From: a virus
Lineage: Duplodnaviria > Heunggongvirae > Uroviricota > Caudoviricetes
Virus record (IMG/VR): IMGVR_UViG_641522650_000006
Length of the DNA: 50,069 nucleotides
Strand: one strand, 5' to 3'
Numbering within the stretch: position 1 is the first letter of the stretch; every line of letters begins with the position of its first letter. Positions 3,448-21,549 of the stretch are shown here, piece after piece. The notes under the pieces are model-generated. The model was not told the DNA's origin, ran no database searches, and saw only the letters and a list, made by a program, of their open reading frames with translations. The position numbers and the translations under genes were made by a program.

Positions 3448-3451
<4 letters not shown>
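3125..3451 (+). CDS. IS629 OrfA
   Basis: 108-aa [24 protein letters not shown]... Confidence 0.85.
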
Positions 3452-4738
<1,287 letters not shown>

Positions 4739-4819
4739 CGGTGGGTTACCCCCAAACGAATCGGAAAATCGATACTGGAAAAACTCTAACTCGGTGGCCA
4801 GTTTTTGTTGACCACTTCA

Positions 4820-5379
4820 CACTCATATTCTTGGGCCACCAGATTTTTTGCAGCTTCTATAGCAGCATCCACCCCCTGCGCCCGGACTTCAGCCAGGAAA
4901 GCATCAGTGGTTGGCGTTTCAGGTATCTGTCTCCTCATCCGTTCTATTGCATGATTGAACCCGAAGTCTTCCGCGAGAGATACGTCATCCATATTGTCAT
5001 TGTCATTGTCATCCTCAATATCCCGTGATTCTGGAATTGCAGACTTTATTCCCGCATTCTCCGCTGCCAGCGCCGCGCACTTGGCTTCAAGAGCGGCAAC
5101 CACTTCCTGATGGTCTTTGTACTTAACGTATGAGCCGGAGATGTCATCACCTTCGGTGTTTAGCCATGCGTCATTGCAATTCACTGCGTAGGTTCTGATG
5201 CTGATGCTCTCCCGCCCCTGACAGACGCCAGGCCAGTCAATAAAGTATCCGCAATGCCTACCCTCAGACGTGCGCGCAGGATAAATGCCGTTATGACCCG
5301 GCAAAATATATGCTACCCATTCATCTTGCGTTGCCTGTTCCGCCGCCTCGCGCAGTGCCTGATAGTCAATCTTGCTCAC
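4820..5379 (-). pseudogene. Ead/Ea22-like phage protein, 3' end replaced by IS911 sequence
   Basis: N-terminus MSKIDYQALREAAEQATQDEW...; last ~11 codons of the ORF (to 4786) lie inside the IS911 terminus. Confidence 0.45.
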
Positions 5380-5632
5380 TGGCAGCCTCCTTTGCCGGGA
5401 TTTCTAACTTTTGAGTGGTTGTATCAAATTCAAACAACTTAACCACGTCATCAAACAGGACATAATCACCATCAGGATCTTCAGTCATATCTGCGCCACA
5501 ATCCTGACCGCACGAGTCGCAACCATCCATATCAAGCTCGTATCGCTTCAGGTTTGCGATATTTGATAAATTCAGCGCCAGTACAGCCAGGTCATAAACC
5601 TCTTCGGCAGTGACATCGCTGTTCAGTCCCAT
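5366..5632 (-). CDS. small acidic hypothetical protein
   Basis: ORF 5366-5704; internal start at 5632 lies 1 nt from the upstream stop. Confidence 0.3.
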   Translation of the reverse strand: MGLNSDVTAEEVYDLAVLALNLSNIANLKRYELDMDGCDSCGQDCGADMTEDPDGDYVLFDDVVKLFEFDTTTQKLEIPAKEAASEQD

Positions 5633-5633
5633 T

Positions 5634-5951
5634 TCATGGCGATATATGATTTTTTCTACTCGTTGTTTTGTGATCGTCATTTTTCTCTTCACTCCGATAT
5701 ACAAGGATTACTACACCCCCTCTGCTGATTGCGCGAGCTGGATCCCCTGGTTCCATGCCGTCAATTCCGAAGGCTTCGGAAAACGCATTCATTGCCTTCT
5801 GGCGTTCATCCTGCTTACGGCGTTTATTCCATTTTTTCAGGAACAACAGCGACAGCCACCGTCCGCTGCAGAACACGATGTAAAAATAACCAAGGAGCGC
5901 CAGGCCGACATTCAGGGCCGTTTCTATGGTTAGTTGTGAGTCAGTTGCCAT
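5634..5951 (-). CDS. small membrane protein
   Basis: One hydrophobic helix (LNVGLALLGYFYIVF), basic stretch after it. Confidence 0.35.
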   Translation of the reverse strand: MATDSQLTIETALNVGLALLGYFYIVFCSGRWLSLLFLKKWNKRRKQDERQKAMNAFSEAFGIDGMEPGDPARAISRGGVVILVYRSEEKNDDHKTTSRKNHISP

Positions 5952-6189
5952 TTCTTACCTGTTTAAGTAACTGGTTGAACATAACACTTAGGGGATTGCT
6001 GTATCCAAACGGCAGATTGTTTACGCAGTACAGAATCATTTTGTTTTTTTCTCCAGTTCGTACTATTAACCCATTCCACAATAACCGTGATAATTTATTA
6101 CTGATAGAAGTTGCGCTTCTTCCAAGTGCGAGGGATATATCTTCTCTACTGCAATCTGGATTTTCCTGGATATACTCGATAACGGTCAT
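5941..6189 (-). CDS. winged-helix DNA-binding protein
   Basis: HTH-like segment REDISLALGRSATSISNKLSRLLWNGLIVR. Confidence 0.35.
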   Translation of the reverse strand: MTVIEYIQENPDCSREDISLALGRSATSISNKLSRLLWNGLIVRTGEKNKMILYCVNNLPFGYSNPLSVMFNQLLKQVRNGN

Positions 6190-6199
6190 GTGGTCCCTT

Positions 6200-6781
6200 T
6201 TACTTAATATCTGTTTCGGATTGCATGCCATGAGTATTCATTTCGTTAATAATTTCATCCAGAAGGATTTCAAGCCCTTCTCGACCCATATCTGAAAGAA
6301 TGAAACCTTTATCAGGGGAAGTAGTGAGCATTTTCTGATAAAGAAACAGCGCTCTTCCCATTCCTTCAGCTTCGCCGTATTTTTGAATTAAATTCCATTC
6401 AATATACTGTTGTAAGGCAAATCGAATGGGGCCGGGATATATCGTCATAAACCCATACATCCCGTTATATACCACGGCGTGTTCAGTTGTTCCGTGTTCA
6501 TTCAGGATATCAATTGTGCCGTTCTTGTCTTCTTCTTCGTTGATGAATGTCGTCACATACAACCATCGCCACTGAGCAACCTTCATCTCAACCGGAAGTT
6601 TACCCAGTAATCCTGCTTCGTCGGCTTGCGCCAGACACTGAAGGATACGTAAACCTCGCACATTAGGAGTATCGAATTCTCCGGCATCCAGACGACGTAT
6701 GGCGTCGTGATAATCAATCGTCATACTGCCAGTTCGTATACCATTGGCTGTTGCTTCAGCCTGGAATTCATCGTATTGCAT
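6200..6781 (-). CDS. hypothetical protein (193 aa)
   Basis: Long ORF, starts 6 bp after upstream stop; no family recognised. Confidence 0.4.
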   Translation of the reverse strand: MQYDEFQAEATANGIRTGSMTIDYHDAIRRLDAGEFDTPNVRGLRILQCLAQADEAGLLGKLPVEMKVAQWRWLYVTTFINEEEDKNGTIDILNEHGTTEHAVVYNGMYGFMTIYPGPIRFALQQYIEWNLIQKYGEAEGMGRALFLYQKMLTTSPDKGFILSDMGREGLEILLDEIINEMNTHGMQSETDIK

Positions 6782-6786
6782 GATAT

Positions 6787-6981
6787 TTATTCCTCATCTT
6801 CATCTTCATCTTCATCTGCTGGTGCAATAACGTCATATCCTGCCTTTTCTGCAATAAACAGGAATGTTGAAAGAGTTCCTACAAGTTCATCGTCATGAAC
6901 ATGGCGAATGAATATTACTTTCCCGTTTTTGATGGTCAGCAATATTCTGGTTTGTTCGTGTTCTGCTGTTTTCTGATGCAT
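6787..6981 (-). CDS. small protein with poly-acidic tail (64 aa)
   Basis: C-terminus ADEDEDEDEE; tightly coupled to the downstream 193-aa gene. Confidence 0.35.
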   Translation of the reverse strand: MHQKTAEHEQTRILLTIKNGKVIFIRHVHDDELVGTLSTFLFIAEKAGYDVIAPADEDEDEDEE

Positions 6982-7155
6982 TATTATCTCCCGTATGCTT
7001 TACGCAGAAATAAGCAGGCAATATGCATGTAATTTTCACCGTATTGTGCAATAAGGCAGGCGGTTAGACTGGCCCCCTGAATCTCCAGACAACCAGTATC
7101 ACTTAAATAAGTGATAGTCTTAATACTAGTTTTTAGACTAGTCATTGGAGTACAG

Positions 7156-7521
7156 ATGATTGATGTCTTAGGGCCGGAGAAACGCAGACGGCGTACCACA
7201 CAGGAAAAGATCGCAATTGTTCAGCAGAGCTTTGAACCGGGGATGACGGTCTCCCTCGTTGCCCGGCAACATGGTGTAGCAGCCAGCCAGTTATTTCTCT
7301 GGCGTAAGCAATACCAGGAAGGAAGTCTTACTGCTGTGGCCGCCGGAGAACAGGTTGTTCCTGCCTCTGAACTTGCTGCCGCCATGAAGCAGATTAAAGA
7401 ACTCCAGCGCCTGCTCGGCAAGAAAACGATGGAAAATGAACTCCTCAAAGAAGCCGTTGAATATGGACGGGCAAAAAAGTGGATAGCGCACGCGCCCTTA
7501 TTGCCCGGGGATGGGGAGTAA
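7156..7521 (+). CDS. insC: IS2 OrfA (InsC)
   Basis: [29 protein letters not shown]... Confidence 0.85.
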
Positions 7522-8384
7522 GCTTAGTCAGCCGTTGTCTCCGGGTGTCGCGTGCGCAGTTGCACGTCATTCTCAGACGAACCGATGACTGGATGGATGG
7601 CCGCCGCAGTCGTCACACTGATGATACGGATGTGCTTCTCCGTATACACCATGTTATCGGAGAGCTGCCCACGTATGGTTATCGTCGGGTATGGGCGCTG
7701 CTTCGCAGACAGGCAGAACTTGATGGTATGCCTGCGATCAATGCCAAACGTGTTTACCGGATCATGCGCCAGAATGCCCTGTTGCTTGAGCGAAAACCTG
7801 CTGTACCACCATCGAAACGGGCACATACAGGCAGAGTGGCCGTGAAAGAAAGCAATCAGCGATGGTGCTCTGACGGGTTCGAGTTCTGCTGTGATAACGG
7901 AGAGAGACTGCGTGTCACGTTCGCGCTGGACTGCTGTGAGCGTGAGGCACTGCACTGGGCGGTGACTACCGGCGGCTTCAACAGTGAAACAGTACAGGAC
8001 GTCATGCTGGGAGCGGTGGAACGCCGCTTCGGCAACGATCTTCCGTCGTCTCCAGTGGAGTGGCTGACGGATAATGGTTCATGCTACCGGGCTAATGAAA
8101 CACGCCAGTTCGCCCGGATGTTGGGACTTGAACCGAAGAACACGGCGGTGCGGAGTCCGGAGAGTAACGGAATAGCAGAGAGCTTCGTGAAAACGATAAA
8201 GCGTGACTACATCAGTATCATGCCCAAACCAGACGGGTTAACGGCAGCAAAGAACCTTGCAGAGGCGTTCGAGCATTATAACGAATGGCATCCGCATAGT
8301 GCGCTGGGTTATCGCTCGCCACGGGAATATCTGCGGCAGCGGGCTTGTAATGGGTTAAGTGATAACAGATGTCTGGAAATATAG
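7479..8384 (+). CDS. insD: IS2 OrfB (InsD) transposase
   Basis: 301-aa ORF overlapping insC; DDE integrase-like region. Confidence 0.85.
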
Positions 8385-8511
8385 GGGCAAATCCAGCGGT
8401 CTTGTGTGATGCCATATTCTTTATAAAAGTCACAATAAAGCCTCCTGCGGATTAAGGTTGTAACAATCCCCGGCGATAAAACCGCAATAAACGTTCAGGG
8501 CATATTTGTTG

Positions 8512-8877
8512 TTATTGCGCTAATTCTTTTTCGGCAGCAGCTTTTGTATACTCACATGCAAAACTCAGAATTTCGCTGCCGAGTGTTTTCGTTTCGTGAT
8601 TACTGGACATATGTAATACCTGTGTTGCATGCAATAAATGATAAACATTTACCGCAAATGAATCAGGCTCCAGACAAATGCCTTCGTAATTATCTTGCTG
8701 TGAGGTTGTTTCTCTCATTGCTCCTGAAGTGCATGCGAGCCTGTTTTTGACAATTCTCTTTTCTCTAATCACTATATCGGCAACATCTATTGCCTTTACA
8801 ACCTCCGGGAGAAGTTCCGGGTTTGTATAATCAAAGTCATCAACATGGAGAACAGTTATGTTTTCGAACTTTTTCAT
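8512..8877 (-). CDS. hypothetical protein, AT-rich gene
   Basis: 121-aa ORF in visibly AT-rich DNA, second gene leftward of the repressor. Confidence 0.4.
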   Translation of the reverse strand: MKKFENITVLHVDDFDYTNPELLPEVVKAIDVADIVIREKRIVKNRLACTSGAMRETTSQQDNYEGICLEPDSFAVNVYHLLHATQVLHMSSNHETKTLGSEILSFACEYTKAAAEKELAQ

Positions 8878-9005
8878 GGCTTCCTCAGCTGACTTATATG
8901 TTCTGCTATATAGCGAGTCTCAGAAGTGTTTTCATATTGAGACTGTTTCCGCAATGATTGATAAAAATGTTCGCATGTACCTTGAAGGGCGAAGCGGCGA
9001 TTATG

Positions 9006-9509
9006 TCACCATTGGTATTGGTTCTTCCGCAGAAGAGCTTCGCGAGATAAGGGGCAAACTTGTTGAGATGCGTCATGGTGTTGCTGCTCCTCACTTTTTG
9101 GTTGCTCCGGAGGAGTAACCTCACCAGTTAACAGCCACATCGGATCGCAGCCAAGAATATTTGCCAGTGGGATAAGCATACTGATAGTTGGTTCATACTC
9201 TCCGCTCTCCCACTGGATGATAATTTCTTCATCGAGATCGAGCAGCCTGGCGAGTTCGGCGGTTGTTAAGCCGCAGGCTTCGCGTTGGGTGCGAAGACGG
9301 TTGTTGATTGCAGAATTTTTGTTCTGTAAAAGCATTGCTGACGATAGCTTTCTGGATATGCTATTTGTCATATCCCATGCCAGTCCTGCGCATGACTCTA
9401 TATCGCTAGAGAGTGTAGCATCAGGTGTTGCTTTTGCTATTAGTGTAATGAGGCTGCCGAGGTTTTTCAGTTCTTCGAGACAGTCAAGAGTTGTAGCTTT
9501 ATTGATCAT
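9006..9509 (-). CDS. XRE-family HTH protein with uncharacterised N-terminal domain
   Basis: C-terminal HTH (LRTQREACGLTTAELARLLDLDEEIIIQWESG); first gene leftward of cI. Confidence 0.5.
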   Translation of the reverse strand: MINKATTLDCLEELKNLGSLITLIAKATPDATLSSDIESCAGLAWDMTNSISRKLSSAMLLQNKNSAINNRLRTQREACGLTTAELARLLDLDEEIIIQWESGEYEPTISMLIPLANILGCDPMWLLTGEVTPPEQPKSEEQQHHDASQQVCPLSREALLRKNQYQW

Positions 9510-9611
9510 GAGATGATACCTCAGTTACGAACTTTGTTTTATGGTAACTAAGGTGTCAAGGTGTGGCAAGTGATTTTGATACTTTGGTTTCTTTTTGTGT
9601 TTTGTGTCTGG

Positions 9612-10268
9612 TCAGAAAATATCCCACCTGGCATCAACCACAACACCTACTATTTCGCAATCATTGTCCATTTCTATGATTGGATATTGTGGATTAAGGG
9701 GCTTTAGAAACGCCTTTCCCATGTCAGAAATATATTTTTTGAATGTTGCTTCATTGGTGGATTTTTTTCTGGCGATGACGTAACACCCTGAAAAAACTTC
9801 TTTATCTGGGTTGACAAGGATCGACATTCCTTCAGGAAATGTTATTCCTACGGGCGAAGTCATTGAGTCTCCGTGCACTTCCAGCCAGAACCCCCTCTCA
9901 CCAGCGTATTTTACAGAATGCCTCCAATTATCCTGATCATACATGTTGTAGTCATCACCAGAAGTTGCGAATAATCCTGCCTGAACCCAGTTAATTACAG
10001 GGTAAGAGTGTGCTGTGTCTCTCTGTGGGCAGCTCTTAACATTATTTTCCCAATGCTTATCTTTTTCATCTCCGTTCTGAAGCCACTGCGGTGAACACCC
10101 CAGTGCAGCTGCAACTTTAAAAAGGGTGTCACCGTTGAAACTTTTTGTAAGGCCTTGCTCGGCTTTACTGATTGCAACTCTGGTGATCCCAGCTTTTTTA
10201 GCCAACGCATCTTGTGTTAACCCAGCTTTTTGCCGTGCGTTGATGAGACGTTCACCTAAAGACTTCAT
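9612..10268 (-). CDS. CI-like prophage repressor (N-terminal HTH plus LexA/S24-like peptidase domain)
   Basis: MKSLGERLINARQKAGLTQDALAKKAGITRVAISKAEQG... then S24-like C-terminus with ...GDSM... and K residues. Confidence 0.75.
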   Translation of the reverse strand: MKSLGERLINARQKAGLTQDALAKKAGITRVAISKAEQGLTKSFNGDTLFKVAAALGCSPQWLQNGDEKDKHWENNVKSCPQRDTAHSYPVINWVQAGLFATSGDDYNMYDQDNWRHSVKYAGERGFWLEVHGDSMTSPVGITFPEGMSILVNPDKEVFSGCYVIARKKSTNEATFKKYISDMGKAFLKPLNPQYPIIEMDNDCEIVGVVVDARWDIF

Positions 10269-10379
10269 TTTTCTTCTCCTCTCATGGCTGTTGATACGAA
10301 AGTAACAGAATTTCTTGATACTTTGGAATCCCGCGGTTAACATCGTTGAATAACAAAGTATCTGGTGTGAGACTAAAGA

Positions 10380-10607
10380 ATGACCCTTTATGAAATATTA
10401 AAAATTCAATTTAAAACCAATGCCGCTATTGGTCGCAGGTTCCCAAAGAAAGGAAGGCCTCGTGGCAGTCAAGGTGTTGGAAAGTGGAAAACGCGAGGTG
10501 TTCCGGAGGATGTTGCCATTCTTTGTCATCTGGATCCGAGCATTCCATATACACACCCAAGGCTAGCGAATACAGAAGATGACAAGCCCACAGGAGACCA
10601 ACAATGA
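10380..10607 (+). CDS. small protein in cro position
   Basis: Divergent from repressor; its stop overlaps the next start (ATGA); sequence is not Cro-like. Confidence 0.25.
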   Translation: MTLYEILKIQFKTNAAIGRRFPKKGRPRGSQGVGKWKTRGVPEDVAILCHLDPSIPYTHPRLANTEDDKPTGDQQ

Positions 10608-11311
10608 ACACCGCAATTTTTAACGGCAAAGCATCCATGACCAGCGTTGAGATCGCAGAGCTGGTGGGAAGCCGACCAGATAGTGTTAAGAGAACTATTG
10701 AAACACTGGCTAAAAAGGGAATCATCCAATTTCCACAGACTGTGGAAATTGAGAATAAACAATCACTTGGGCCTCGCCGATTTTCTAGCGCGTATGTATT
10801 CGAAGGTGAACGAGGTAAGCGCGACAGCATCATTGTCGTCGCACAGCTCTGTCCTGAATTCACAGCTCGCCTGGTAGATCGCTGGCGCGAACTGGAAGAA
10901 CAGATCCGTAAGCCAATGAGCGAAATCGAAATGGTTGCCGCGATGGCTCTTGAAGCCGTTCGCCAACAGAAACGGATCACTCAGGTGGAAGAAAAAGTCA
11001 GCCACGTTGCTGAAACAGTCGAGCAAATTAAAAAGGGCACTATTCGTGAGGGCTATGCCGGATATCGCCAACTGAAAGCAAAAACCGGTTTGTCAGATGA
11101 TAAATGCCGCAATCTGGTGAACGCCTATCAAATTCCTACAGACACCCATGAGTTCATGACGCCGGACAGATTGTTGCCACGTCGCGCAATTGTTGCTGTG
11201 GAACCGTTTATGGCTGCTTTTTATCGGGTTATGGAGGAAGCAGAACCGCGAGGGACTCGCTGGTATCACCCGAAAATGGGGTTATTTCAGGTTATTGGTT
11301 GGCAGCGGTGA
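10604..11311 (+). CDS. phage regulatory protein (Rha/antirepressor-like)
   Basis: N-terminal HTH-like MTSVEIAELVGSRPDSVKRTIETLAKKG. Confidence 0.45.
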   Translation: MNTAIFNGKASMTSVEIAELVGSRPDSVKRTIETLAKKGIIQFPQTVEIENKQSLGPRRFSSAYVFEGERGKRDSIIVVAQLCPEFTARLVDRWRELEEQIRKPMSEIEMVAAMALEAVRQQKRITQVEEKVSHVAETVEQIKKGTIREGYAGYRQLKAKTGLSDDKCRNLVNAYQIPTDTHEFMTPDRLLPRRAIVAVEPFMAAFYRVMEEAEPRGTRWYHPKMGLFQVIGWQR

Positions 11312-11716
11312 AAAAAAGCCGGGAGTAACCCGGCTCACTCAACATCAATAACGGGGAGCTGTTTCGCATAAAACGGCTCCGAAACATCCAAGAACAGTTC
11401 TAAAGATATCAGCAGCTATATGATCATTTCAAGACCAAATATTGATTCTGCAATTTCGGGACGTTACACTGTCTCCGCACCTTATAAAGCGGGTGCCGGG
11501 ATTGGCGTCCTGAAATTCGCACATGCGCATAACCGCGCTTCAGCGGTTTTTTTGCGCACGTTTCCTCACATCCAAATTATGGTGGGGCGTGCAGGGGCAT
11601 CGAAAGATGCGCCGGGGTCATGTGCGACCGGTTACGCCAACCCTGTACGTCTCACCACCTCTGTGATTGGCGTCCCATGTGGTGAGTTTTCAAAATTCGC
11701 ACATGAGGATGTCACT

Positions 11717-12268
11717 ATGGCAACCACCCCTACCCAAACTCACCCTAAAATTGATGTTATCCATGGGAAGGCTGTTACCTCTTCTTTGGCCGTTGCCGAA
11801 TATTTCTGCAAGCAGCACAAAAACGTTATTCAAAAAATCCAGACGCTTGAGTGCTCTGTTGAATTCACTGAGCTGAATTTTCAGCCCAGTGATTACACCG
11901 ATTGCACAGGCCGCAAACTACCTTGCTATCAAATCACCCGCGATGGCTTCGCGTTCCTTGCTATGGGCTTTACTGGCAAACGTGCAGCCCGGTTCAAAGA
12001 GGCATACATCAACGCCTTTAACCAGATGGAGAAGAATTTATCTGGTGCTGACGCGGTTGATATGTCAGCTGTCGCACGAAACGCCAGAGGCGTATACCTG
12101 CATTTGCGTGAAATCCATCAAATCTGGACAAGCCAGCTTTATCCAATGCTTAAGGCCGTTGAATCTCCGCTGGCTAGCAAACTGTACGACCGTGTTGGTG
12201 ATGCTGTTTTTGGCGCTGCACTTGTTGATTCCAGGCTGAATGGTTCTGACAAGGAGGTTCGCCCATGA
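11717..12268 (+). CDS. Rha-family phage regulatory protein
   Basis: AEYFCKQHKNVIQKI...YQITRDGFAFLAMGFTGKRAARFKEAYINAFNQME matches Rha signature. Confidence 0.6.
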   Translation: MATTPTQTHPKIDVIHGKAVTSSLAVAEYFCKQHKNVIQKIQTLECSVEFTELNFQPSDYTDCTGRKLPCYQITRDGFAFLAMGFTGKRAARFKEAYINAFNQMEKNLSGADAVDMSAVARNARGVYLHLREIHQIWTSQLYPMLKAVESPLASKLYDRVGDAVFGAALVDSRLNGSDKEVRP

Positions 12269-12459
12269 TTAGTTACGAAATCATCATCTCCACTACGGAA
12301 TACAGAAACGATGTATCAGTTCGCACGGATGTATCTGTCTGGCACCGTCGCTATAAATCCAGAAAAACAGCGGAACTGAAAGCGGCAGAGATGTGTGAAA
12401 CCATCTCAATGAAAGGTAGCCCGGTTAAATACGTAACTACGGTGGAGGTGCGTCCATGA
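12265..12459 (+). CDS. hypothetical small protein
   Basis: 64-aa ORF, start overlaps upstream stop. Confidence 0.3.
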   Translation: MISYEIIISTTEYRNDVSVRTDVSVWHRRYKSRKTAELKAAEMCETISMKGSPVKYVTTVEVRP

Positions 12460-12680
12460 TCCGCCACATCGTTAATTCCCTGTATCACCGATACAACCGT
12501 TGCCCCCGTGTGGGGCAGTGGTTCGCCACCAGCAACGGTCACGTTCTGCGGGTTTGCCTAGTCAACGCTGAAAGCCAGAAAGTCGTGTGCGAACTACAGG
12601 GGCGTAGCTACACCATCAGTTACCCTCTGGCGGTATTTCTGTCTGGAAAAATGTTTAAGCGTCTGGGAGGTGTGGCGTGA
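12456..12680 (+). CDS. hypothetical small protein
   Basis: 74-aa ORF in a chain of overlapping start/stop codons. Confidence 0.3.
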   Translation: MIRHIVNSLYHRYNRCPRVGQWFATSNGHVLRVCLVNAESQKVVCELQGRSYTISYPLAVFLSGKMFKRLGGVA

Positions 12681-12976
12681 ACTGTTTTCAGTTTGTGTGC
12701 GGATGTGCTTTCGATAACCCGATTCAGCGCCTGATTATGTTGCGTGTTTTGATGTCGGGTTCTTCAGACGGTGAAGGCGAGAGAGTTATTGATCATCAGG
12801 TGCTTGCTGATTTCTGCTGTTGTTCTAAGCAAGCGATATTCAGGGAAACCCTGGCACTGGAAAGAGCTGGTTATCTTCATATCCGAAAAATTGCAACGCT
12901 TACTATTGATGCAAAAGCCAGACTACAACCTGCGCGTGGCTACACAATTCTCATGCCGCGGAAGGAGGTTGTATGA
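12677..12976 (+). CDS. hypothetical protein
   Basis: 99-aa ORF, overlapping start/stop with neighbours. Confidence 0.3.
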   Translation: MNCFQFVCGCAFDNPIQRLIMLRVLMSGSSDGEGERVIDHQVLADFCCCSKQAIFRETLALERAGYLHIRKIATLTIDAKARLQPARGYTILMPRKEVV

Positions 12977-13953
12977 GCCGTTACGCCCCCACACCGGAAG
13001 TTATGGCTATTGGTCAAATTAATATTTCCGGCAATGTTACACCTGCGAACTGGTGGAAATATATTCGACTACCCAGTGGGCGTCCGGATGCGACGGCTAT
13101 CGCTCTGCTTTCAGAGATCGTTTACTGGTACCGCCCGACAGAGGTCAGGGATGAGCACACCGGAGCGTTGCTGGGATATCGCAAGCGTTTTCAGGGCGAC
13201 AAACTGCAAAGAAGCTACCAGGCGTTTGCTGAGCAGTTTGGTTTCGGGAAAAGGGAAACCGCAGATGCGCTGAAGCGTCTGCGCGATGCAGGGTTTATTA
13301 CTCTGGATTTACGCACGGTGGAAATGCTCGATGGGGTGAAATGCAGCAATATTTTGTTTGTCGGGATCAACCCACAGGCAATTGCGGCCATCACCACACC
13401 TTCTTCTGTTTCGCCAGAAAGTAACAGCAATAATGCAATCAGCGATACAGCTATTACGTTAAAACGGAACACCCCCCGACGTCATAACGGAACAGGGGAT
13501 ACGCCGAATGTTGATACAAATACAGAGATTACAACGGAGACTAAAAACACTATTGATGCATCCGCTGACGCGTCTGCGCCAGCGCGTTCTGCCCGACAGG
13601 AATATTCACCGGAATTTGAACAGGCCTGGCAGGAATATCCCAAACGTGCTGGTGGCAATTCCAAGTCAGCAGCCTTCAAAGCCTGGAAAGCCCGTATCAG
13701 GGAAGGAATAAAACCGGAGACCATGCTTGATGGCGTGAAGCGGTATGCCGCCTGGGTACGTGCTACAGGAAATACCGGCACACAGTTCGTGAAGCAGGCT
13801 GCGACGTTCTTTGGACCCGATCGTCACTTCGAAGATTACTGGCAACAGCCAGCCGCTCACGGAGGTGGGCGACAGCGACAGGTTGATGTCCTGGCTGGCC
13901 TGGGAGCCATGTCTGACAAATTCGGTAAATCCAGTAACAAATTGACATTCTGA
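12973..13953 (+). CDS. replication initiation protein (O-like)
   Basis: 326 aa, sits immediately upstream of DnaC-like and DnaB-like genes. Confidence 0.4.
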   Translation: MSRYAPTPEVMAIGQINISGNVTPANWWKYIRLPSGRPDATAIALLSEIVYWYRPTEVRDEHTGALLGYRKRFQGDKLQRSYQAFAEQFGFGKRETADALKRLRDAGFITLDLRTVEMLDGVKCSNILFVGINPQAIAAITTPSSVSPESNSNNAISDTAITLKRNTPRRHNGTGDTPNVDTNTEITTETKNTIDASADASAPARSARQEYSPEFEQAWQEYPKRAGGNSKSAAFKAWKARIREGIKPETMLDGVKRYAAWVRATGNTGTQFVKQAATFFGPDRHFEDYWQQPAAHGGGRQRQVDVLAGLGAMSDKFGKSSNKLTF

Positions 13954-13954
13954 G

Positions 13955-14842
13955 GTGACAGCGATGATGACGATTGACCAACGTGAGAAACAAACAAGAC
14001 TACAGGCGCGAATGGATGAGTTACGGGCAGAGATTGCATTTGCTCAGAAGGGCGAAAAGCCATGGCCTTATCGTTCCTGCCTGATGCGTGAAGGTCGCGG
14101 ATATTGCGAAAAACACGGTAAATATCGTACGCATATACTGGTGTGGAGCGATCGTAATGGCGAGGACAGAGAAAAAATTTCATGCTGCCCTGACTGCTTG
14201 ATCGCTGAGGCCAGTTATTTGACCATGGAACTGTCGTCCCTCAAGGCGGAAGAACTGACTGATAACGCCGGAATTGCTCTGCGTTTTCGGGACTGCGAGT
14301 TTGATAATTATCTGGAGGTTAATCCTGACGCAGCCAGAAATCTTGCGGCCTGTCGCCGCTATGCGGAGAACTGGCCAGATATGCTGGAGAACGGTACCAG
14401 TCTTGTTATGACCGGCAGTTGCGGTACCGGGAAAAATCATCTGGCGGTATCAATGGCAAAACACATCATCCGTAACTATCTGGCCAGTGTGGAGATCACC
14501 GACGTGATGCGCCTTACCCGGGCTGTGAAAAACTGCTGGCGGAATGACAGTGAAAAAACAGCGGATGACGTCATTGAGCATTATGCGTCACTGGATTTGC
14601 TGATTGTCGACGAAGTCGGCGTTCAGTTTGGCAGTGCGGCTGAAATGGCCATTTTGCAGGAAATTATCAATGCCCGGTATGAGGGTATTTTGCCAACTAT
14701 CTTGATCAGCAATCTTTCACCGGAAGAATTGTGGGCGTTCATCAGTCCCCGGATTGCCGACAGGATCACCGATGGCGGGCGCAACTGGTTGTCGTTTAAC
14801 TGGCCCAGCTACCGTTCTCGTATCGGAGGTGTTGCCGCATGA
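13955..14842 (+). CDS. DnaC-like helicase loader (IstB-like AAA ATPase)
   Basis: Walker A TGSCGTGKNHLA, Walker B LLIVDEVG; N-terminal Cys cluster. Confidence 0.65.
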   Translation: MTAMMTIDQREKQTRLQARMDELRAEIAFAQKGEKPWPYRSCLMREGRGYCEKHGKYRTHILVWSDRNGEDREKISCCPDCLIAEASYLTMELSSLKAEELTDNAGIALRFRDCEFDNYLEVNPDAARNLAACRRYAENWPDMLENGTSLVMTGSCGTGKNHLAVSMAKHIIRNYLASVEITDVMRLTRAVKNCWRNDSEKTADDVIEHYASLDLLIVDEVGVQFGSAAEMAILQEIINARYEGILPTILISNLSPEELWAFISPRIADRITDGGRNWLSFNWPSYRSRIGGVAA

Positions 14843-16240
14843 CCAGCCAGAACACCCCGGCATGGCGTAACGATGACCTGGAAGGCGCTGTCATCGGTGC
14901 GTTTTTTCTGCGTGGGGCCGATCCGGAAGTGATGGATATTCTGGCCACACTTCCGGCGGATGTATTTTTTGTGCGTCAGTACCGGGATATTTACGCGGGG
15001 ATTTGCAGACAGGCTCGCATATCCGGCGTCATTGACCCCGTACTGCTGTGCAATGAGATGCCGGAACTTGCCCCGGTGATTACCGACACCGGACGCAAAA
15101 CCTGGGTGAAGTCTTCACTGGAGCACTATGTCGCAGCGTTGCGGCGCAATGCCGCACTGCGCGATGCAGAAAAAACACTGACTGAAGCATTACAGAATTT
15201 ACGTGATGCGTATACCTGTGAAGCAGCCGAGGATGCCCTGAAGGATGTGCAGAACATGATGGCCTCACTGTCGACCGGAAAGGGCGTCATTCAGCCGGTT
15301 CACATTGATGATGTCCTTCTGGAAGTGGTCGACCGTGTTGAATGCCGCAATCAGGGACTGGAGAAATCCAGGGCGCTGATGACCGGTATTGATGAACTGG
15401 ACGCAAAAACGGGCGGTATGGAGCCCGGAGACCTGGTATTCATTGCCGCCCGTCCTTCGATGGGGAAAACCGAACTTGCGCTGGACATCATCGACAAGGT
15501 GACTGAGCAGGGGCATGGCGTGCTTCTGTTCACCATGGAGATGGCGAACATCCAGATTGGTGAACGTATGGTGTCTGCTGCCGGTGGAATGCCGGTATCC
15601 CGTCTTAAGTCTGTTGCCCGTTTTGAAGATGAAGACTGGGCGCGTTTCTCGCAGGGCGTGGGACGAATGACGGGGCGTAATATCTGGATGGTGGACCAGG
15701 CAAACCTGACCCATTGATGAGATATGTGCAACCACGAAGCACCACCGGATGAAACACCCGGAAACGGCGCTGGTGGTGGTCGATTACCTCGGCCTGATTA
15801 AAACCCGCAGTACGGGGCGTCACGACCTTGCGGTGGGGGAAATCTCAAAGGGACTTAAAAGCCTGGCAAAATCCGGCGGTTTTCCGCTGATTGCTCTGAG
15901 CCAGCTCTCCCGCGGCGTGGAATCCAGACCCAATAAACGCCCAATGAACTCGGACCTGAAAAACTCCGGGGAAATCGAGGCGGATGCCGACATCATTCTG
16001 ATGCTTTACAGGGATGAGGTATACAACCCGGAAACTCAGGCCAGAGGCATAGCAGAAATCAACATCACGAAACAGCGTAATGGCACGCTCGGGACCATTT
16101 ACCGGCGTTTTCATAACGGACATTTTCTGCCTGTGGACCAGGAGAGTGCCCGGGTTCTTTCCACACCCATGACGCCGGGCAATCCGCGCAGATACAGCAA
16201 TAACCGCATGTCGGGCAGTAAAACGGAGCGTTTATTTTGA
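14839..16240 (+). pseudogene. DnaB-like replicative helicase, frameshifted near 15700-15717
   Basis: ORF 14839-15717 (Walker A ARPSMGKT) and ORF 15749-16240 (VVVDYLGL...) are in different frames. Confidence 0.6.
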
Positions 16241-16494
16241 ACAACAGAACAATCACTGTTTCACCGGAACAACTTCGTCGGCAGGCGCAGGAGATGCTTC
16301 GTTGTGCTGAACAGATGGAAAAAACGAGCGTGGCAAAAGATACGCTCCGCAAGCAGCTTACTCCGGCGCTTCGTGATCTGCTGCAGGCAAAACACCGTAC
16401 ACAAAAGGCGGTGGATGAGCTGGTGGATTGCGTGGCGGAACTGGAAGGCCAGGTAAGCCAGTTTGAAACGCTGGTGAAGGAGTTTACTGCGTGA
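16237..16494 (+). CDS. hypothetical small protein
   Basis: 85-aa ORF, start overlaps helicase stop. Confidence 0.3.
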
Positions 16495-16539
16495 TGGCTG
16501 AATTTTTTCTCCTGCGTTCATGCAATATCGTTCGCTGAG

Positions 16540-17535
16540 GTGACCGTGAGAGCATTGTTGACTCCTGAAATTGCCCCGCGAATGGGGATTGTATTGTTCA
16601 GGCCCGGTTCAGAGCTGATGCCCCTGTTTATGCAGGGGCGTGTCCTGCTGGAGCCTGAGCCGGAACGTTATTCATCTTTCGCCAGCGGTGCCGTTCCGGC
16701 AGCATCACAACCGCTGGCGGATGATCCTGCCGTTCGGGCCGTGTTCCGCCATGAGGCGGTGATCCGTCGTGCTGGTGGCGTGGAATGCCTTGAGAGCTGG
16801 TTACTTCGTGAAAAGGGCTGTCAGTGGCCTCATTCCGACTGGCACAGCGAGAACATGACCACAATGCGGCACGCGCCAGGCGCAATCCGTCTGTGCTGGC
16901 ACTGTGACAATCTTCTCCGTGACCAGTTCACGGAACGGCTGGAATCAATGGCAACGGATAACTGTGCCCGCTGGGTGTTGTCTGTTGTGCGTCGGGATCT
17001 CGGTTTTGATGACAGTCACGTTGTGACAATGCCGGAACTGTGCTGGTGGCTGATTCGTAATGACCTGGCGGATGCCTTACCGGAAAGTGCAGCCCGTAAG
17101 GCACTGAGATTACCGAAGCCTGTTGTGCCGTCTGTCACCCGGGAAAGTGACCTTGTGCCTTCGGTTCCTGCCACCAGCATCATCCAGGATAAGGCGAAAA
17201 AGGTGCTGGCGCTGAAAGTGGATCCGGAGTCGCCGGAGTCTTTTATGTTACGCCCAAAACGTCGCCGCTGGGTTAACGAGAAATACACACGCTGGGTGAA
17301 GACACAGCCGTGTGCGTGTTGTGGTAAGCCAGCCGACGATCCCCATCACCTGATTGGTCATGGTCAGGGCTGAATGGGGACAAAATCTCACGATATTTTC
17401 ACGCTACCGCTGTGTCGGGAGCATCACAACGAGCTTCATGCGGATCCTCTGGCGTTCGAAGAAAAGCATGGTTCTCAGGTTGATTTAATTTTTCGTTTTC
17501 TTGATCACGCCTTTGCAACTGGCGTGCTTGGGTAA
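16540..17535 (+). pseudogene. DUF968/NinG-like phage protein with in-frame TGA at 17371-17373
   Basis: ...PCACCGKPADDPHHLIGHGQG-stop-MGTKSHDIFTLPLCREHHNELH... continues in the same frame. Confidence 0.5.
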
Positions 17536-17547
17536 AAGAGGTGACTG

Positions 17548-17922
17548 ATGCTCATAGATTTGGTTTTACCTTACCCGCCGACGGTGAACACTTACTGGCG
17601 ACGCCGTGGCAGCACATATTTTATCTCGGAGGAGGGAAAGCGTTATCGCCGGGCTGTGGCGCTTATTGTTCGCCAGCAGCGGCTGAAATTAAGCCTGTCC
17701 GGAAGGCTGGCGATAAAGGTGATTGCAGAGCCACCGGATAAGCGTCGTCGCGACCTGGACAATATCCTGAAAGCACCGCTGGATGCGCTGACGCATGCGG
17801 GAGTGTTAATGGACGATGAGCAGTTTGATGAAATCAATATCGTTCGTGGTCAGCCAGTATCTGGTGGACGTATGGGGGTGAAGATTTACCCCATAATGCA
17901 TGAAGAGCAGGTCAAAAAATGA
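17548..17922 (+). CDS. rusA: RusA Holliday-junction resolvase
   Basis: LPYPPTVNTYWRRRG...RRRDLDNILKAPLDALTHAGVLMDD. Confidence 0.8.
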   Translation: MLIDLVLPYPPTVNTYWRRRGSTYFISEEGKRYRRAVALIVRQQRLKLSLSGRLAIKVIAEPPDKRRRDLDNILKAPLDALTHAGVLMDDEQFDEINIVRGQPVSGGRMGVKIYPIMHEEQVKK

Positions 17923-18740
17923 AACTGGAAGATTTACCGAAATACTACTCCCCAAAATCCCCTAGCCTGACCGATGCATCGGCCTCAACGTCAAAAGATG
18001 CGCTGAGTATCACTGATGTGATGGCCGCGCAGGGCATGACACAGAATCGGGCTGAGATGGGGTTTTCTGCGTTCCTGGGGAAAATGGGCATCAGTATGAA
18101 TGACAGGGCGCGGGCAACAGAATTACTGGCAGATTATGCACTCAGTCGGTGCGATCGTGTGGCGGCGTTGAGAAAACTTCCGGCAGAAATAAAACCGGTA
18201 GTGATGCGCATTATGGCTTCGTATGCGTTTGAAGATTATGCCCGTAGCGCGGCGAGCAAAAAACAGTGCCCCTGCTGTCACGGAAAAAAATTTATTGAAA
18301 GCGAGGTTTTTACAAACAAGATCCAGTATCCGGATGGTAAGCCACCAGTGTGGGCAAAGTGCACAAAAGGCGTGTATCCGTCTTACTGGGAAGAATGGAA
18401 AAAAGTCAGGGAGGTGGTAAAAGTTGCCTGTCCGGAGTGTGGCGGAAAGGGTGAGGTTTCCACCGCCTGTAAGGATTGCCGTGGGCGTGGTGTCGCCATT
18501 CATCGTGAAGAGTCGGTAAAACGTGGTATGCCTGTTATCAGAGACTGCCAGCGTTGTGGTGGTCGTGGCTGTGAAAGACTACCATCAACGGAGGCATTTA
18601 ATGCCATATGCAAAGTGACGAGTGCTATCACGCTTGATACGTGGAAAAAATCAGTGAAACGCTTTTACGATACGTTGGTGGTTCGGTTTGACATTGAAGA
18701 GGCATGGGCGGAGCGGCAGTTAAAGAGGGTAACGCGATAG
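17919..18740 (+). CDS. Q-like late antiterminator (zinc-binding)
   Basis: 273 aa with several CxxC pairs; last gene before a PR'-like promoter and terminated leader. Confidence 0.5.
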   Translation: MKLEDLPKYYSPKSPSLTDASASTSKDALSITDVMAAQGMTQNRAEMGFSAFLGKMGISMNDRARATELLADYALSRCDRVAALRKLPAEIKPVVMRIMASYAFEDYARSAASKKQCPCCHGKKFIESEVFTNKIQYPDGKPPVWAKCTKGVYPSYWEEWKKVREVVKVACPECGGKGEVSTACKDCRGRGVAIHREESVKRGMPVIRDCQRCGGRGCERLPSTEAFNAICKVTSAITLDTWKKSVKRFYDTLVVRFDIEEAWAERQLKRVTR

Positions 18741-18745
18741 TTTTG

Positions 18746-18774
18746 TTGATTTTTCCCGAATCTGTGGTAAATTT
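18746..18774 (+). promoter_or_regulatory. PR'-like late promoter
   Basis: TTGATT, 16-17 bp spacer, TAAATT; lambda PR' uses a similar -10. Confidence 0.4.
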
Positions 18775-18822
18775 GCTCTAATGATGGGCGTTTTATGCCT
18801 GACGTTAGAAGATTTTTTACAC

Positions 18823-18844
18823 CCCGCCGCCTGGCGGGTTTTTT
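18823..18844 (+). terminator. rho-independent terminator (tR'-like)
   Basis: CCCGCC-GCCT-GGCGGG followed by TTTTTT. Confidence 0.45.
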
Positions 18845-18966
18845 ATGACTGAAATCGCGTCAGTACAGTAAACGCGCTGGTGGCGGTGAATACCTGTCTT
18901 TCAGCTTGCTGGCTTTTTCGACAAGAGTTATTGGTGTGTCACGTTAACCGGAAAAGGGAAAAAGAC

Positions 18967-19164
18967 ATGCTAAAACAGCAGGATATGACAGAAACCGCCA
19001 GAGTGGTGTTTAATGAATTAAGCGTTACCGAACCGGCGACAGTCGGGGAGATAGCGCAGAATACTTACCTTTCACGCGAACGCTGCCAGTTAATACTGAC
19101 CCAGCTGGTTATGGCGGGTCTGGCAGACTATCAGTTCGGTTGTTACAGACGCCTTCCGCAGTGA
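18967..19164 (+). CDS. hypothetical small protein
   Basis: ORF with purine-rich RBS-like stretch upstream. Confidence 0.3.
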   Translation: MLKQQDMTETARVVFNELSVTEPATVGEIAQNTYLSRERCQLILTQLVMAGLADYQFGCYRRLPQ

Positions 19165-19314
19165 AGGCTTTTTTATTTGTGGTAAATGGGCGGCTGGTGG
19201 GTGTTAGGGGCACCCACCAGCCATCTGCTCATGCGTTGGGTTCACAAGCAAACCTCAGGCCCACTGCTTTGCGCAAAAGCAGAATGAGCCTATCAGAGAC
19301 AGGCTTAATGATCC

Positions 19315-20364
19315 ATGCTTAATACTGTAAAAATATCCAGTTGTGAGTTAATCAACGCCGACTGCCTGGAATTTATCCGGTCGTTACCCGAAAATTCTGT
19401 TGACCTGATAGTCACGGACCCGCCGTACTTTAAAGTGAAGCCTGAGGGCTGGGATAACCAGTGGAAGGGCGACGATGATTACCTGAAGTGGCTGGACCAG
19501 TGTCTGGCGCAGTTCTGGCGGGTGCTGAAACCTGCCGGAAGTCTTTACCTGTTCTGTGGTCATCGCCTGGCATCTGATATCGAAATCATGATGCGTGAAC
19601 GCTTCAGTGTGCTGAACCATATTATCTGGGCGAAGCCTTCCGGACGCTGGAACGGGTGCAACAAGGAAAGCCTGCGGGCGTATTTCCCCGCCACAGAGCG
19701 CATTCTGTTCGCGGAACATTATCAGGGGCCGTATCGTCCGAAAGATGCCGGGTATGAGGCGAAGGGCAGGGCACTGAAACAGCATGTGATGGCCCCGCTG
19801 ATTTCTTACTTTCGTGATGCATGCGCGGCCCTGGGGATAACGGCAAAACAGATTGCAGATGCCACAGGAAAGAAAAACATGGTGTCGCACTGGTTCAGTG
19901 CCAGTCAGTGGCAGTTGCCGAACGAAAGCGATTATCTGAAATTACAGGCACTGTTTGCCAGGGTGGCAGAAGAGAAGCATCAGCGGGGGGAACTGGAAAA
20001 GCCCCACCACCAGCTGGTGGATACGTATACTTCACTGAACCGACAGTATGCGGAGCTGCAGAGTGAATATAAACATCTGCGGCGGTATTTTGGTGTGACG
20101 GCGCAGGTGCCGTACACGGATGTGTGGACACATAAACCGGTGCAGTTCTATCCCGGGAAACATCCGTGCGAAAAACCGGCAGAAATGCTGCAGCAGATAA
20201 TCAGCGCAAGTAGTCGTCCTGGTGATCTGGTTGCGGATTTTTTCATGGGGTCGGGTTCAACGGTAAAAGCGGCACTGGCGCTCGGGCGTCGTGCGATTGG
20301 CGTTGAACTGGAGACAGGACGTTTTGAGCAGACAGTCAGGGAAGTTCAGGATTTAATCGTTTGA
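19315..20364 (+). CDS. DNA N6-adenine/N4-cytosine methyltransferase, orphan
   Basis: DPPY motif (TDPPYF) and C-terminal FFMGSGST SAM-binding motif; no adjacent restriction gene. Confidence 0.7.
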   Translation: MLNTVKISSCELINADCLEFIRSLPENSVDLIVTDPPYFKVKPEGWDNQWKGDDDYLKWLDQCLAQFWRVLKPAGSLYLFCGHRLASDIEIMMRERFSVLNHIIWAKPSGRWNGCNKESLRAYFPATERILFAEHYQGPYRPKDAGYEAKGRALKQHVMAPLISYFRDACAALGITAKQIADATGKKNMVSHWFSASQWQLPNESDYLKLQALFARVAEEKHQRGELEKPHHQLVDTYTSLNRQYAELQSEYKHLRRYFGVTAQVPYTDVWTHKPVQFYPGKHPCEKPAEMLQQIISASSRPGDLVADFFMGSGSTVKAALALGRRAIGVELETGRFEQTVREVQDLIV

Positions 20365-20413
20365 AACGGATGAGATTGCAGAATTAATTACGCACCATTA
20401 TTATTCTGCTCCC

Positions 20414-20486
20414 GGCCCTTTAGCTCAGTGGTGAGAGCGAGCGACTCATAATCGCCAGGTCGCTGGTTCAAATCCAGCAAGGGCCA
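20414..20486 (+). tRNA. tRNA with CAU anticodon (ileZ-like Ile2, or Met)
   Basis: Acceptor GGCCCTT/AAGGGCC, TAGCTCAGTGG D-arm, GGTTCAAATCC T-arm. Confidence 0.7.
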
Positions 20487-20496
20487 CTATCACATA

Positions 20497-20570
20497 CCGC
20501 CATTAGCTCATCAGGAAAGAGCGCCAGCCTTCGAAGCTGGTTGCGCGGAGTTCGGGTCCCCGAAGGCGGT
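20497..20570 (+). tRNA. tRNA-Arg (UCG), argN-like
   Basis: Cloverleaf with anticodon loop CTTCGAA; one acceptor and one T-stem mismatch. Confidence 0.6.
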
Positions 20571-20586
20571 TCATTATCTGTATCCT

Positions 20587-20663
20587 GCGTTGTTAGCTCA
20601 GCCGGACAGAGCAATTGCCTTCTAAGCAATCGGTCACTGGTTCGAATACAGTAGAACGCGCCA
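20587..20663 (+). tRNA. tRNA-Arg (UCU), argO-like
   Basis: Anticodon loop CTTCTAA, T-loop TTCGAAT, encoded CCA end. Confidence 0.7.
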
Positions 20664-20678
20664 CACTTATTTTCCCTG

Positions 20679-20702
20679 GCTCGCTTTTGCGGGCTTTTTT
20701 TT
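20679..20702 (+). terminator. rho-independent terminator after tRNA cluster
   Basis: GCTCGC-TTTT-GCGGGC followed by eight T. Confidence 0.45.
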
Positions 20703-20953
20703 AAATGTCTCACAATTCAGGCGGTTGACTGTTGTCTGGTTTGCGGGGAGTTTGTTAAAAGAAACTGGCATGGTGAATCCCCCTGTGCGGAGGGGCAATC
20801 AGCGAGTAGGTATATGGGATAATCGCAGATTCAGGTGCTGGTACTGAATTCACCGGGAGGCACCCGGCACCATGCAATGGCACATAGCGCCACTCTCCAG
20901 CCCCTCTCCGGAGGGGCTGTTTATATTGATTTTGTCAGATGTGAGTAAACTCC

Positions 20954-21310
20954 TTATGGACTTTGTTGTTTTAGCCCATAAGGACATATTTGCAGAGTGC
21001 AACGGTTATTAAAGCATTCATTCAATACGTTATCTGTATTTGTAGGGCATTCCTGGCTGTTTTTGATTAAATTCCAGAATGTTTTATTGAATGGTACTAC
21101 GTTGTAAATGGTTACAGGTAGCACTTTGTTATTGAGCATGATGCCTGTGTGAGTCAGTGTAAATATACTTTCAGGAGGTAAGAAAGCATCCGATTGATAC
21201 CAGATTATTAATTTTATTTTACTCCATATGACTGAAAAAGATATTCCGCATGATGGCTGGATAACTGTATCAATCACAATCCACTTCATTTGGTTTCCTT
21301 GTTTATGCAT
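20954..21310 (-). CDS. hypothetical ORF in AT-rich segment
   Basis: 118-aa ORF antisense to late transcription; may be non-coding. Confidence 0.25.
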
Positions 21311-21549
21311 TGCTGGTGATGTTCTGAAAAGTATAAATGATATTTTTGAATGTAAACCATAGAGCAGAATTATTTTTCTGATGTTGTTTATTGTTTATTT
21401 AAATGCAGGGTGGTTTATATCTCGTCTTGTAGTTTATCCATGCATATCTGCTTGATGATGAGGTTTTTATTTAAGGTATGGTTTTGTGTTTTTTCTGTAT
21501 TACATGTCAGGTATTTTAAAGAATCATTTTTCAGATGGTGGAAAGAACC

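Follow-up and report, generated by a model that had tools for sequence, protein, structure and literature searches.

Three early-left genes of a lambdoid prophage as probable independently assorting accessory genes

Do three closely packed early-left genes of a lambdoid prophage form one functional unit? The question is raised by positions 5941-6981 of IMG/VR record IMGVR_UViG_641522650_000006, a 50,069-nucleotide (nt) stretch of DNA from a virus of the Caudoviricetes, the whole of which is referred to here as the window. An earlier reading made from the letters of the window (the sequence-only reading) described a tightly coupled three-gene set at this position, designated orfA, orfB and orfC below, and hinted that the acidic tail of the first product might mark a DNA mimic or an anti-defence factor. 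The analysis described here indicates that the three are probably independently assorting, dispensable early-left accessory genes, which in intact phages would be transcribed together from pL with coupled translation and which are probably silent in this prophage.

Gene layout and coding status

The three open reading frames (ORFs) are present at the coordinates given in the sequence-only reading and lie on the minus strand. The first, orfA (6787..6981), encodes a 64-amino-acid (aa) protein ending in ADEDEDEDEE and is preceded by a GGGAG Shine-Dalgarno sequence 6 nt upstream of its ATG. It is followed after a spacing of 5 nt by orfB (6200..6781), which encodes an acidic protein of 193 aa with an isoelectric point (pI) of 4.6 and has its GAGGA Shine-Dalgarno sequence inside the last codons of orfA. 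The third gene, orfC (5941..6189), encodes a minimal winged-helix protein that had been read as 96 aa and is most likely 82 aa. The shorter start, ATG 6189, lies 10 nt past the orfB stop with an AAGGGA Shine-Dalgarno sequence just upstream, and the 96-aa reading from ATG 6231 would overlap orfB by 32 nt. The length of 82 aa is taken because ATG 6231 lacks a Shine-Dalgarno sequence and because GenBank records of Shiga toxin (Stx) phages annotate the shorter start (e.g. Stx1_14040).

The near-overlap of these genes is real, but it does not set them apart. The next gene downstream, encoding a DUF4752 protein (5634..5951, minus strand; Pfam DUF4752, E 7.2e-37), has its ATG at 5951 and shares 11 nt with the 3' end of orfC; similar packing continues down the operon. 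Tight spacing is therefore a trait of the whole operon and not special to orfA, orfB and orfC.

Pairwise comparison with homologues gave ratios of nonsynonymous to synonymous substitution (dN/dS) of 0.16-0.40 in five of six comparisons, with values of 0.23-0.40 for orfA (two informative comparisons), 0.16-0.28 for orfB and 0.27 for orfC. The sixth, between orfA and its near-identical copy in locus L009, is uninformative (synonymous divergence 0.026, dN/dS 0.82). Each product matches a PHROG family, with full-length coverage for orfA (phrog_340, E 1.4e-22, residues 2-63) and orfB (phrog_1515, E 3e-90, residues 1-192) and an E-value of 2.3e-24 for orfC (phrog_1687). Judged by these comparisons, all three are real genes under purifying selection.

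That no family is recognisable for the first two products was borne out, as neither orfA nor orfB has a match in Pfam, NCBIfam or PADLOC. Single-sequence and profile searches of PDB sequences returned no match for any of the three, and homology to characterised housekeeping phage proteins, which would have spoken against the sequence-only reading, was looked for and not found. There are no further copies of orfA or orfB in the window, no Rfam match within 4500-10500 and no inverted or operator-like repeats within 5300-7100. Promoter-like sites show no excess over shuffled expectation and none lies upstream of orfA on the minus strand, in a consensus scan that could miss weak promoters; terminator-like sites show no excess either. 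Nothing relevant was found in the literature on phrog_340, phrog_1515, DUF4752, PF24732 or the L06 and L07 genes of phage phiP27.

Distribution and assortment of orfA, orfB and orfC

The region was found in 283 of 5,426 complete E. coli genomes (~5%) and in temperate phages, including PhiR49_2 (99% identity across the region) and many Stx1- and Stx2-converting phages (~93%). Carriers of orfB, among them clinically important prophages, include ST131, O55:H7, O111 and O157 strains of E. coli as well as Stx phages. The genes lie between the CI repressor gene and xis/int in those annotated phage relatives that were inspected and at the E. coli prophage loci for which genes had been called, which confirms the placement in the early-left operon of a lambdoid prophage. 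The equivalents of orfA and orfB in PhiR49_2 and the Stx1 and Stx2 phages are annotated as hypothetical proteins and are uncharacterised.

A check of co-occurrence across prophages, proposed with the sequence-only reading, does not favour a functional three-gene set. The gene orfC is present in only about half of the matching records (10 of 21 phages and 140 of the 283 E. coli genomes). In E. coli lambdoid phages orfA is located directly upstream of orfB, and in another group of E. coli and Klebsiella loci it lies within the orfB operon with one or two genes in between. A search for orfB loci seeded with single distant family members added 39 more distant loci (L010-L043, L050-L054), all of which lack orfA, and the phage vB_EcoM-705R4 (L008) carries an orfA homologue without orfB. 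From this distribution only orfA followed by orfB qualifies as a semi-conserved pair; the three genes are neither a conserved set nor one unit, and orfC is not co-inherited with the other two.

The separate origin of orfC is also visible at its junction with orfB. In phages and genomes that lack orfC, homology always breaks at window position 6223 (position 324 of the query 5900-7050 and position 283 of the query 5941-6981), which marks a mosaic junction at 6200..6223 (minus strand) where the final ~7 orfB codons are part of the orfC cassette. The product of orfB ends in HGMQSETDIK in the window, in HGMPEGQ in Stx2 phages and in HGMPEAPVTH in phiP27. Across the family a C-terminal P-x-x-P-x-x-H motif is nearly invariant, with the terminal His at least 90% conserved, and because of this near-invariance the recombination that brought orfC is read as having replaced a conserved orfB tail. 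Depending on the locus, orfB is followed by a winged helix-turn-helix (wHTH) gene, by an unrelated gene of 92 aa, by a gene for a Band_7 lipoprotein or by an ORF6N-type anti-repressor (Ant) gene. On this evidence orfC and the final ~7 orfB codons make up a separate mosaic insert, which would have arrived through a recombination event of its own.

Among the closest known counterparts of the pair are genes of the Stx2e phage phiP27, in which L07 (~49% identity) and L06 (65% identity) are orthologues of orfA and orfB, respectively. Unlike the window, phiP27 encodes an L07 product without the acidic tail and an L06 product that keeps the P-x-x-P-x-x-H C-terminus, and a Band_7 lipoprotein gene follows in place of the wHTH gene.

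Expression of the three genes in this prophage is probably disrupted by an insertion sequence (IS) of 1331 bp (7065..8395, plus strand), which is flanked by the target duplication GCGGT at 7060-7064 and 8396-8400. From its sequence we take this element to be IS2; it carries IS2-type ORFs at 7111-7521 and 7479-8384. In a blastn comparison with PhiR49_2 (L001), positions 3906-5633 of the phage correspond to window 5331-7064 and positions 5629-6529 to window 8396-9296. The insertion sits just upstream of orfA, disrupts an ORF of 37 aa whose copy in PhiR49_2 (L001 5553-5666) is intact, and separates the three genes from pL. Since they are cut off from pL, orfA, orfB and orfC are probably silent passengers in this prophage. 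In intact relatives the three would be co-transcribed after induction or infection, and coupled translation is probable because each ribosome-binding site falls within the final part of the preceding gene or immediately behind it.

On the far side of IS2, the upstream part of the leftward unit (8512..10343) is encoded on the minus strand and consists of a homologue of phiP27 'L08' (8512-8877), a helix-turn-helix (HTH) protein (9006-9509, HTH_3 match) and a CI-type repressor with HTH_3 and Peptidase_S24 domains (9612-10343). Matches to phrog_5451 and phrog_4739 were obtained in this part, and its gene order agrees with that of PhiR49_2 and phiP27. The prophage is degraded, as it carries IS3-, IS110- and IS66-family elements besides IS2. 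IS3-family rve transposase ORFs are located at 3448-4338, 4196-4738 (truncated) and 30387-31205, and there are two IS110-family ORFs of 391 aa each in opposite orientation and two IS66-family transposases, one of them truncated; the IS-element regions span 3448-4738, 27588-28763, 29056-31205, 34391-35983 and 36276-37451. A separate observation is a 626-aa ORF at 21535-23415 with DUF1737, SASA (sialate O-acetylesterase) and DUF6645 domains, which presumably resembles the NanS-type esterase genes typical of Stx-phage late regions.

Protein features and a possible mechanism

The winged helix proposed for the product of orfC stands, although at a borderline score: the Pfam HTH_24 match of 22.8 bits barely passes the cut-off of 21.9 (E 6.7e-5) and is supported by the phrog_1687 match. 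The match spans the wHTH only (residues 14-60), and MarR_2 (23.2 bits vs 27) and MarR (16.5 bits vs 24.6) remain below their gathering thresholds. GenBank records of Stx phages call this protein a MarR-family regulator, and phrog_1687 carries a MarR label. MarR proteins are ~140 aa in length and flank their wHTH with dimerisation helices at both termini. The orfC product shares the winged helix-turn-helix and has MarR_2 and MarR among its best weak Pfam matches, but it is a single wHTH without the flanking dimerisation helices, and its 82 aa are too few for a MarR-type dimer. It would be a small, separately acquired DNA-binding regulator. The RefSeq/PGAP annotation of NC_017656.1 does not call orfC, which leaves a gap between the DUF4752 gene and orfB (L092 2511-2760).

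Searched as a profile against 1.84 billion representative proteins, orfB retrieved only 101 clusters, the full-length members of which are stand-alone proteins of ~190-220 aa. The named sources are prophages of Escherichia, Klebsiella, Enterobacter, Raoultella, Providencia and Proteus, and by this search the family is compact and confined to Enterobacterales prophages. None of the 33 aligned members, screened at E <= 1, pointed to a recurring Pfam family. Structure prediction, which had also been proposed for these genes, helped unevenly: the model of orfB is confident and a fold search with it found no structural neighbour, and the model of orfA is of too low quality to be searched with. Only D37 and R120 are invariant among the 33 members of the orfB family, and two invariant residues would fit a binding protein better than an enzyme. 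Residues 120-183 of orfB, a helix-helix-hairpin-helix segment, are homologous to a stand-alone phrog_1737 protein of 113-121 aa (hhalign probability 88%, E 3e-6), which is encoded in the same operons as orfB in several lineages of sister phages (L004 2290-2655, L005 2286-2651, L007 3118-3477, L015 3164-3526 and L017 1611-1952). The orfB gene also recurs beside a gene for a phrog_1001 protein of 74 aa and beside Ant-type genes. At Providencia/Proteus-type loci the Ant gene, of Rha or ORF6N/KilAC type, mostly ends exactly at the orfB start, and in Klebsiella/E. coli loci of type (a) the Ant gene is located downstream of orfB instead.

Two labels attached to orfB homologues were considered and set aside. 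Homologues in Klebsiella phages (L004 3501-4079 and others) are annotated '2-polyprenylphenol hydrolase / flavodoxin oxidoreductase'; no profile match supports this, and the hydrolase label looks like a spurious transferred annotation. A plasmid leading-region context was rejected as well, since the 'plasmid' records that carry orfB are all non-mobilizable, most of them ~20-40 kb, and none places the gene in a conjugative leading region; these records are read as phage-like. Homologues with ~41-44% identity to the window copy also occur in OM284015.1 (Elizabethkingia phage EKP1) and MH178096.1 (Aeromonas phage AsXd-1), the latter having an early-left region closely similar to those of Klebsiella and E. 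coli phages; the host assignments may be erroneous, or these phages may range unusually widely. In Providencia/Proteus-type phages the gene downstream of orfB (L017 4086-4619, L022 4095-4703) encodes a protein of 177-202 aa that matches a PHROG labelled 'RusA-like resolvase' (E 3e-16) without a Pfam match, and from the look of its sequence it may contain a beta-clamp-like domain.

The product of orfA has a core of ~45 residues (conserved over ~12-50), for which the AlphaFold2 (AF2) model places strands at 12-18 and 21-28 and a helix at 37-46 with a mean predicted local distance difference test (pLDDT) score of 64.8. Homologues include L07 of phiP27 and gp33 of a Klebsiella phage. In phrog_4792 (268 positions) the match joins residues 12-53 to positions 199-240, and in phrog_2379 (187 positions) it joins residues 5-52 to positions 127-175; both families are labelled 'anti-repressor' and have ORF6N domains as their N-terminal parts. 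The ORF6N-type Ant protein encoded beside orfB in L017 matches these N-terminal parts, and orfA itself has no Pfam match to the ORF6N, ANT or pRha domains.

These observations suggest how the proteins could act, namely through partner binding rather than catalysis, within the Ant/Rha/ORF6N regulatory neighbourhood of temperate phages. The product of orfA would be a free-standing copy of a beta-hairpin/helix module from the C-terminus of ORF6N-type anti-repressors, used for oligomerisation or for binding a partner, which would be orfB here and possibly a ParE-like protein in sister phages. The orfB product would be a soluble two-part protein that works alongside Ant-type regulators and whose C-terminal helix-helix-hairpin-helix module has a stand-alone paralogue in phrog_1737. 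Comparison with the ORF6N/Rha/KilAC Ant proteins (phrog_2379, phrog_4792 and phrog_63) goes both ways, as the orfA core aligns to the C-terminal segment of two ORF6N-type profiles and Ant-type genes abut orfB in several lineages, but orfA lacks the defining ORF6N, Rha and KilAC domains and orfB shows no similarity to these proteins.

Several points weigh against this picture. Neither experiment nor homology assigns a function to any of the three genes, and the link to anti-repressors consists of gene neighbourhood and PHROG profile coordinates only. Among 37 ORF6N loci, no ORF6N protein is fused to an orfA-like domain, and orfB is found nearby in only 8 of the 37 ORF6N-Ant loci. The window-type phages have no Ant gene beside orfB and carry a Rha-like Roi gene in the rightward operon, and the orfA model is of low confidence. 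Furthermore, the 'anti-repressor' labels on ORF6N and Rha proteins are mostly transferred annotations, and genes that sit side by side in a phage operon are often functionally unrelated. Partner binding in an anti-repressor neighbourhood is put forward as the most likely mechanism, though with low confidence. The explanation as a whole, in which the structural conclusion and this mechanism are blended, is the best at hand and is advanced tentatively, and the structural conclusion considered by itself is the probable part.

As accessory genes, orfA, orfB and orfC are of the kind classically grouped as 'ea'-type genes. They share with the ea and exo-xis genes of lambda and P22 (e.g. Ea22, orf73/TraR-like) the small size, tight packing, mosaic make-up and non-essential early-left niche, and the Pfam scan places an Ea22-like gene ~0.6 kb downstream of them. 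There is no sequence relation between any characterised ea or exo-xis gene and orfA, orfB or orfC. Some genes of the ea/exo-xis type reprogram the host via protein binding (PMC9239242).

Alternative explanations and significance

Of the alternatives, anti-defence survives best and is nevertheless improbable. It would have orfA act as an acidic DNA mimic, or orfB as an inhibitor of host immunity, made early to protect incoming phage DNA. Counter-defence genes such as Gam, Ral and Abc2 do occur in lambdoid early-left operons (PMC12315714), the genes considered here are accessory with a patchy distribution, no known fold matches orfB, and both orfA (pI 4.56) and orfB (pI 4.60) are acidic. The poly-acidic tail from which the hint of a DNA mimic arose is present in the window, with 9 of the 16 Asp and Glu residues of orfA in its last 10 positions, but it is the product of a hexanucleotide tandem repeat. 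The repeat, (GATGAA)4 at 6794..6817 (minus strand), was detected by TRF with a period of 6, 4.0 copies and a 100% match, encodes the DEDEDE of the tail and lies just upstream of the orfB Shine-Dalgarno sequence. Its copy number is four in the window, three in PhiR49_2, two in Stx phages and zero in the phiP27 type; the protein variants end in anything from DEDEE to DEDEDEDEDEE, and the AGGA Shine-Dalgarno sequence of orfB after the repeat is kept across the copy-number variants. Because the copy number varies and the phiP27 orthologue L07 is tailless with a pI of 6.71, the acidity of orfA is best read as a lineage-specific product of slippage and not a family trait, and the hint of a DNA mimic is not supported.

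The same evidence separates orfA from Ocr, ArdA and Gam-like DNA mimics: its acidic residues are neither spread over a folded body nor conserved among orthologues, and the acidity of its ~45-residue folded core is not conserved. No match of orfA to known DNA mimics was found in Pfam, NCBIfam or PDB sequences, nor does PADLOC, Pfam or NCBIfam support an anti-defence role, and the 'plasmid' homologues of orfB offer no conjugative leading-region context. A Gam-like inhibitor of RecBCD is also unlikely in a Chi-rich phage without a Rec module (PMC12315714).

Slightly less probable again is an arrangement resembling a toxin-antitoxin system, with orfA as antitoxin, orfB as toxin and orfC as regulator in the manner of paaR2-paaA2-parE2, or with orfA and orfB alone as the pair. 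The order of a small acidic protein, a larger protein and a wHTH protein, with tight spacing, would suit it, and three-component ParE systems do occur on E. coli O157 prophages (PMC8630535). In addition, in sister phages of Klebsiella and E. coli a gene for a 72-73-aa protein with a ParE-like toxin domain (PF24732, E ~3e-19) shares its first ~29 nt with the orfA homologue, in the classic order of antitoxin then toxin (L004 2648-3092, L005 2629-3091, L007 3474-3876 and L044/L045 3001-3403). This overlap makes the orfA homologue and the ParE-like gene a candidate phage-borne toxin-antitoxin pair in those phages, and the resemblance to ParDE and paaR2-paaA2-parE2 lies in this small upstream protein. 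The window differs in having no ParE-like gene and in an orfA product without similarity to ribbon-helix-helix (RHH), Phd or PaaA2 proteins; the scans described above, in which a weak promoter could go unseen, showed neither a separate promoter nor an operator. Even the ParE-like pairing is incomplete, as the Aeromonas phage AsXd-1 has kept the ParE-like gene and lost the orfA homologue. Within the orfA-orfB pair, each gene occurs without the other (orfB in the 39 distant loci, orfA in vB_EcoM-705R4), orfC is not co-inherited with either, and orfB resembles no toxin family by PADLOC, Pfam or fold. The genes also belong to a repressed operon, to which the logic of addiction does not apply.

A hidden recombination function is very improbable: the genes do occupy the place of the lambda and P22 Rec modules in a phage without recognisable Rec genes (PMC12315714), and some orfB loci have the neighbour with the 'RusA-like resolvase' label, but the family does not extend to every lambdoid phage that lacks a Rec module (PMC12315714), shows no structural similarity to recombination proteins and resides in a phage whose Chi enrichment suggests use of host RecBCD. 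No Rec module is annotated from int to cI in the 99%-identical PhiR49_2, and none of exo, bet, gam, erf or abc was found in Pfam scans of the window ORFs in 4786-9509, the IS-interrupted ORFs left of 4786 having been scanned only partly. The Chi sequence (GCTGGTGG) occurs at 16 sites against 2.2 expected, a number reached in 0 of 100 shuffles; all sites lie within 10.6-25.7 kb (10660-25744) and 11 of the 16 are on the plus strand. The window phage thus matches the lambdoid class with no Rec module and high Chi (class A of PMC12315714). Chi-rich phages of this kind have been proposed to depend on active RecBCD, and no early-left gene of unassigned role is universal in lambdoid phages without a Rec module (PMC12315714). 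The anti-defence, toxin-antitoxin and recombination explanations are all ranked below the interpretation of orfA, orfB and orfC as assorting accessory genes.

With that interpretation, the apparent three-gene system gives way to accessory genes of the usual mosaic sort in a decaying prophage. Uncharacterised themselves, they fall into known PHROG families and occupy a familiar kind of genomic niche, and the gain is mostly one of clarification. A bolder view, which is doubtful at best, would make orfB the first member of a class of early phage proteins with a new structure, which regulate Ant-type anti-repressors or are regulated by them, and the orfA family a new class of small neutralisers or adaptors that also act as antitoxin partners of phage ParE-like proteins. 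If it were true, orfB might determine if co-resident prophages are derepressed by a superinfecting or induced phage, and free-standing orfA could be a decoy against ParE-type abortive-infection toxins. Neither orfB nor the ParE-like lead alters current understanding unless experiments show an effect. The overlap of the orfA homologue with the ParE-like gene is a testable candidate toxin-antitoxin pair, and orfB is a reasonable and inexpensive target for studies of prophage cross-talk or early host takeover in Shiga toxin phages.

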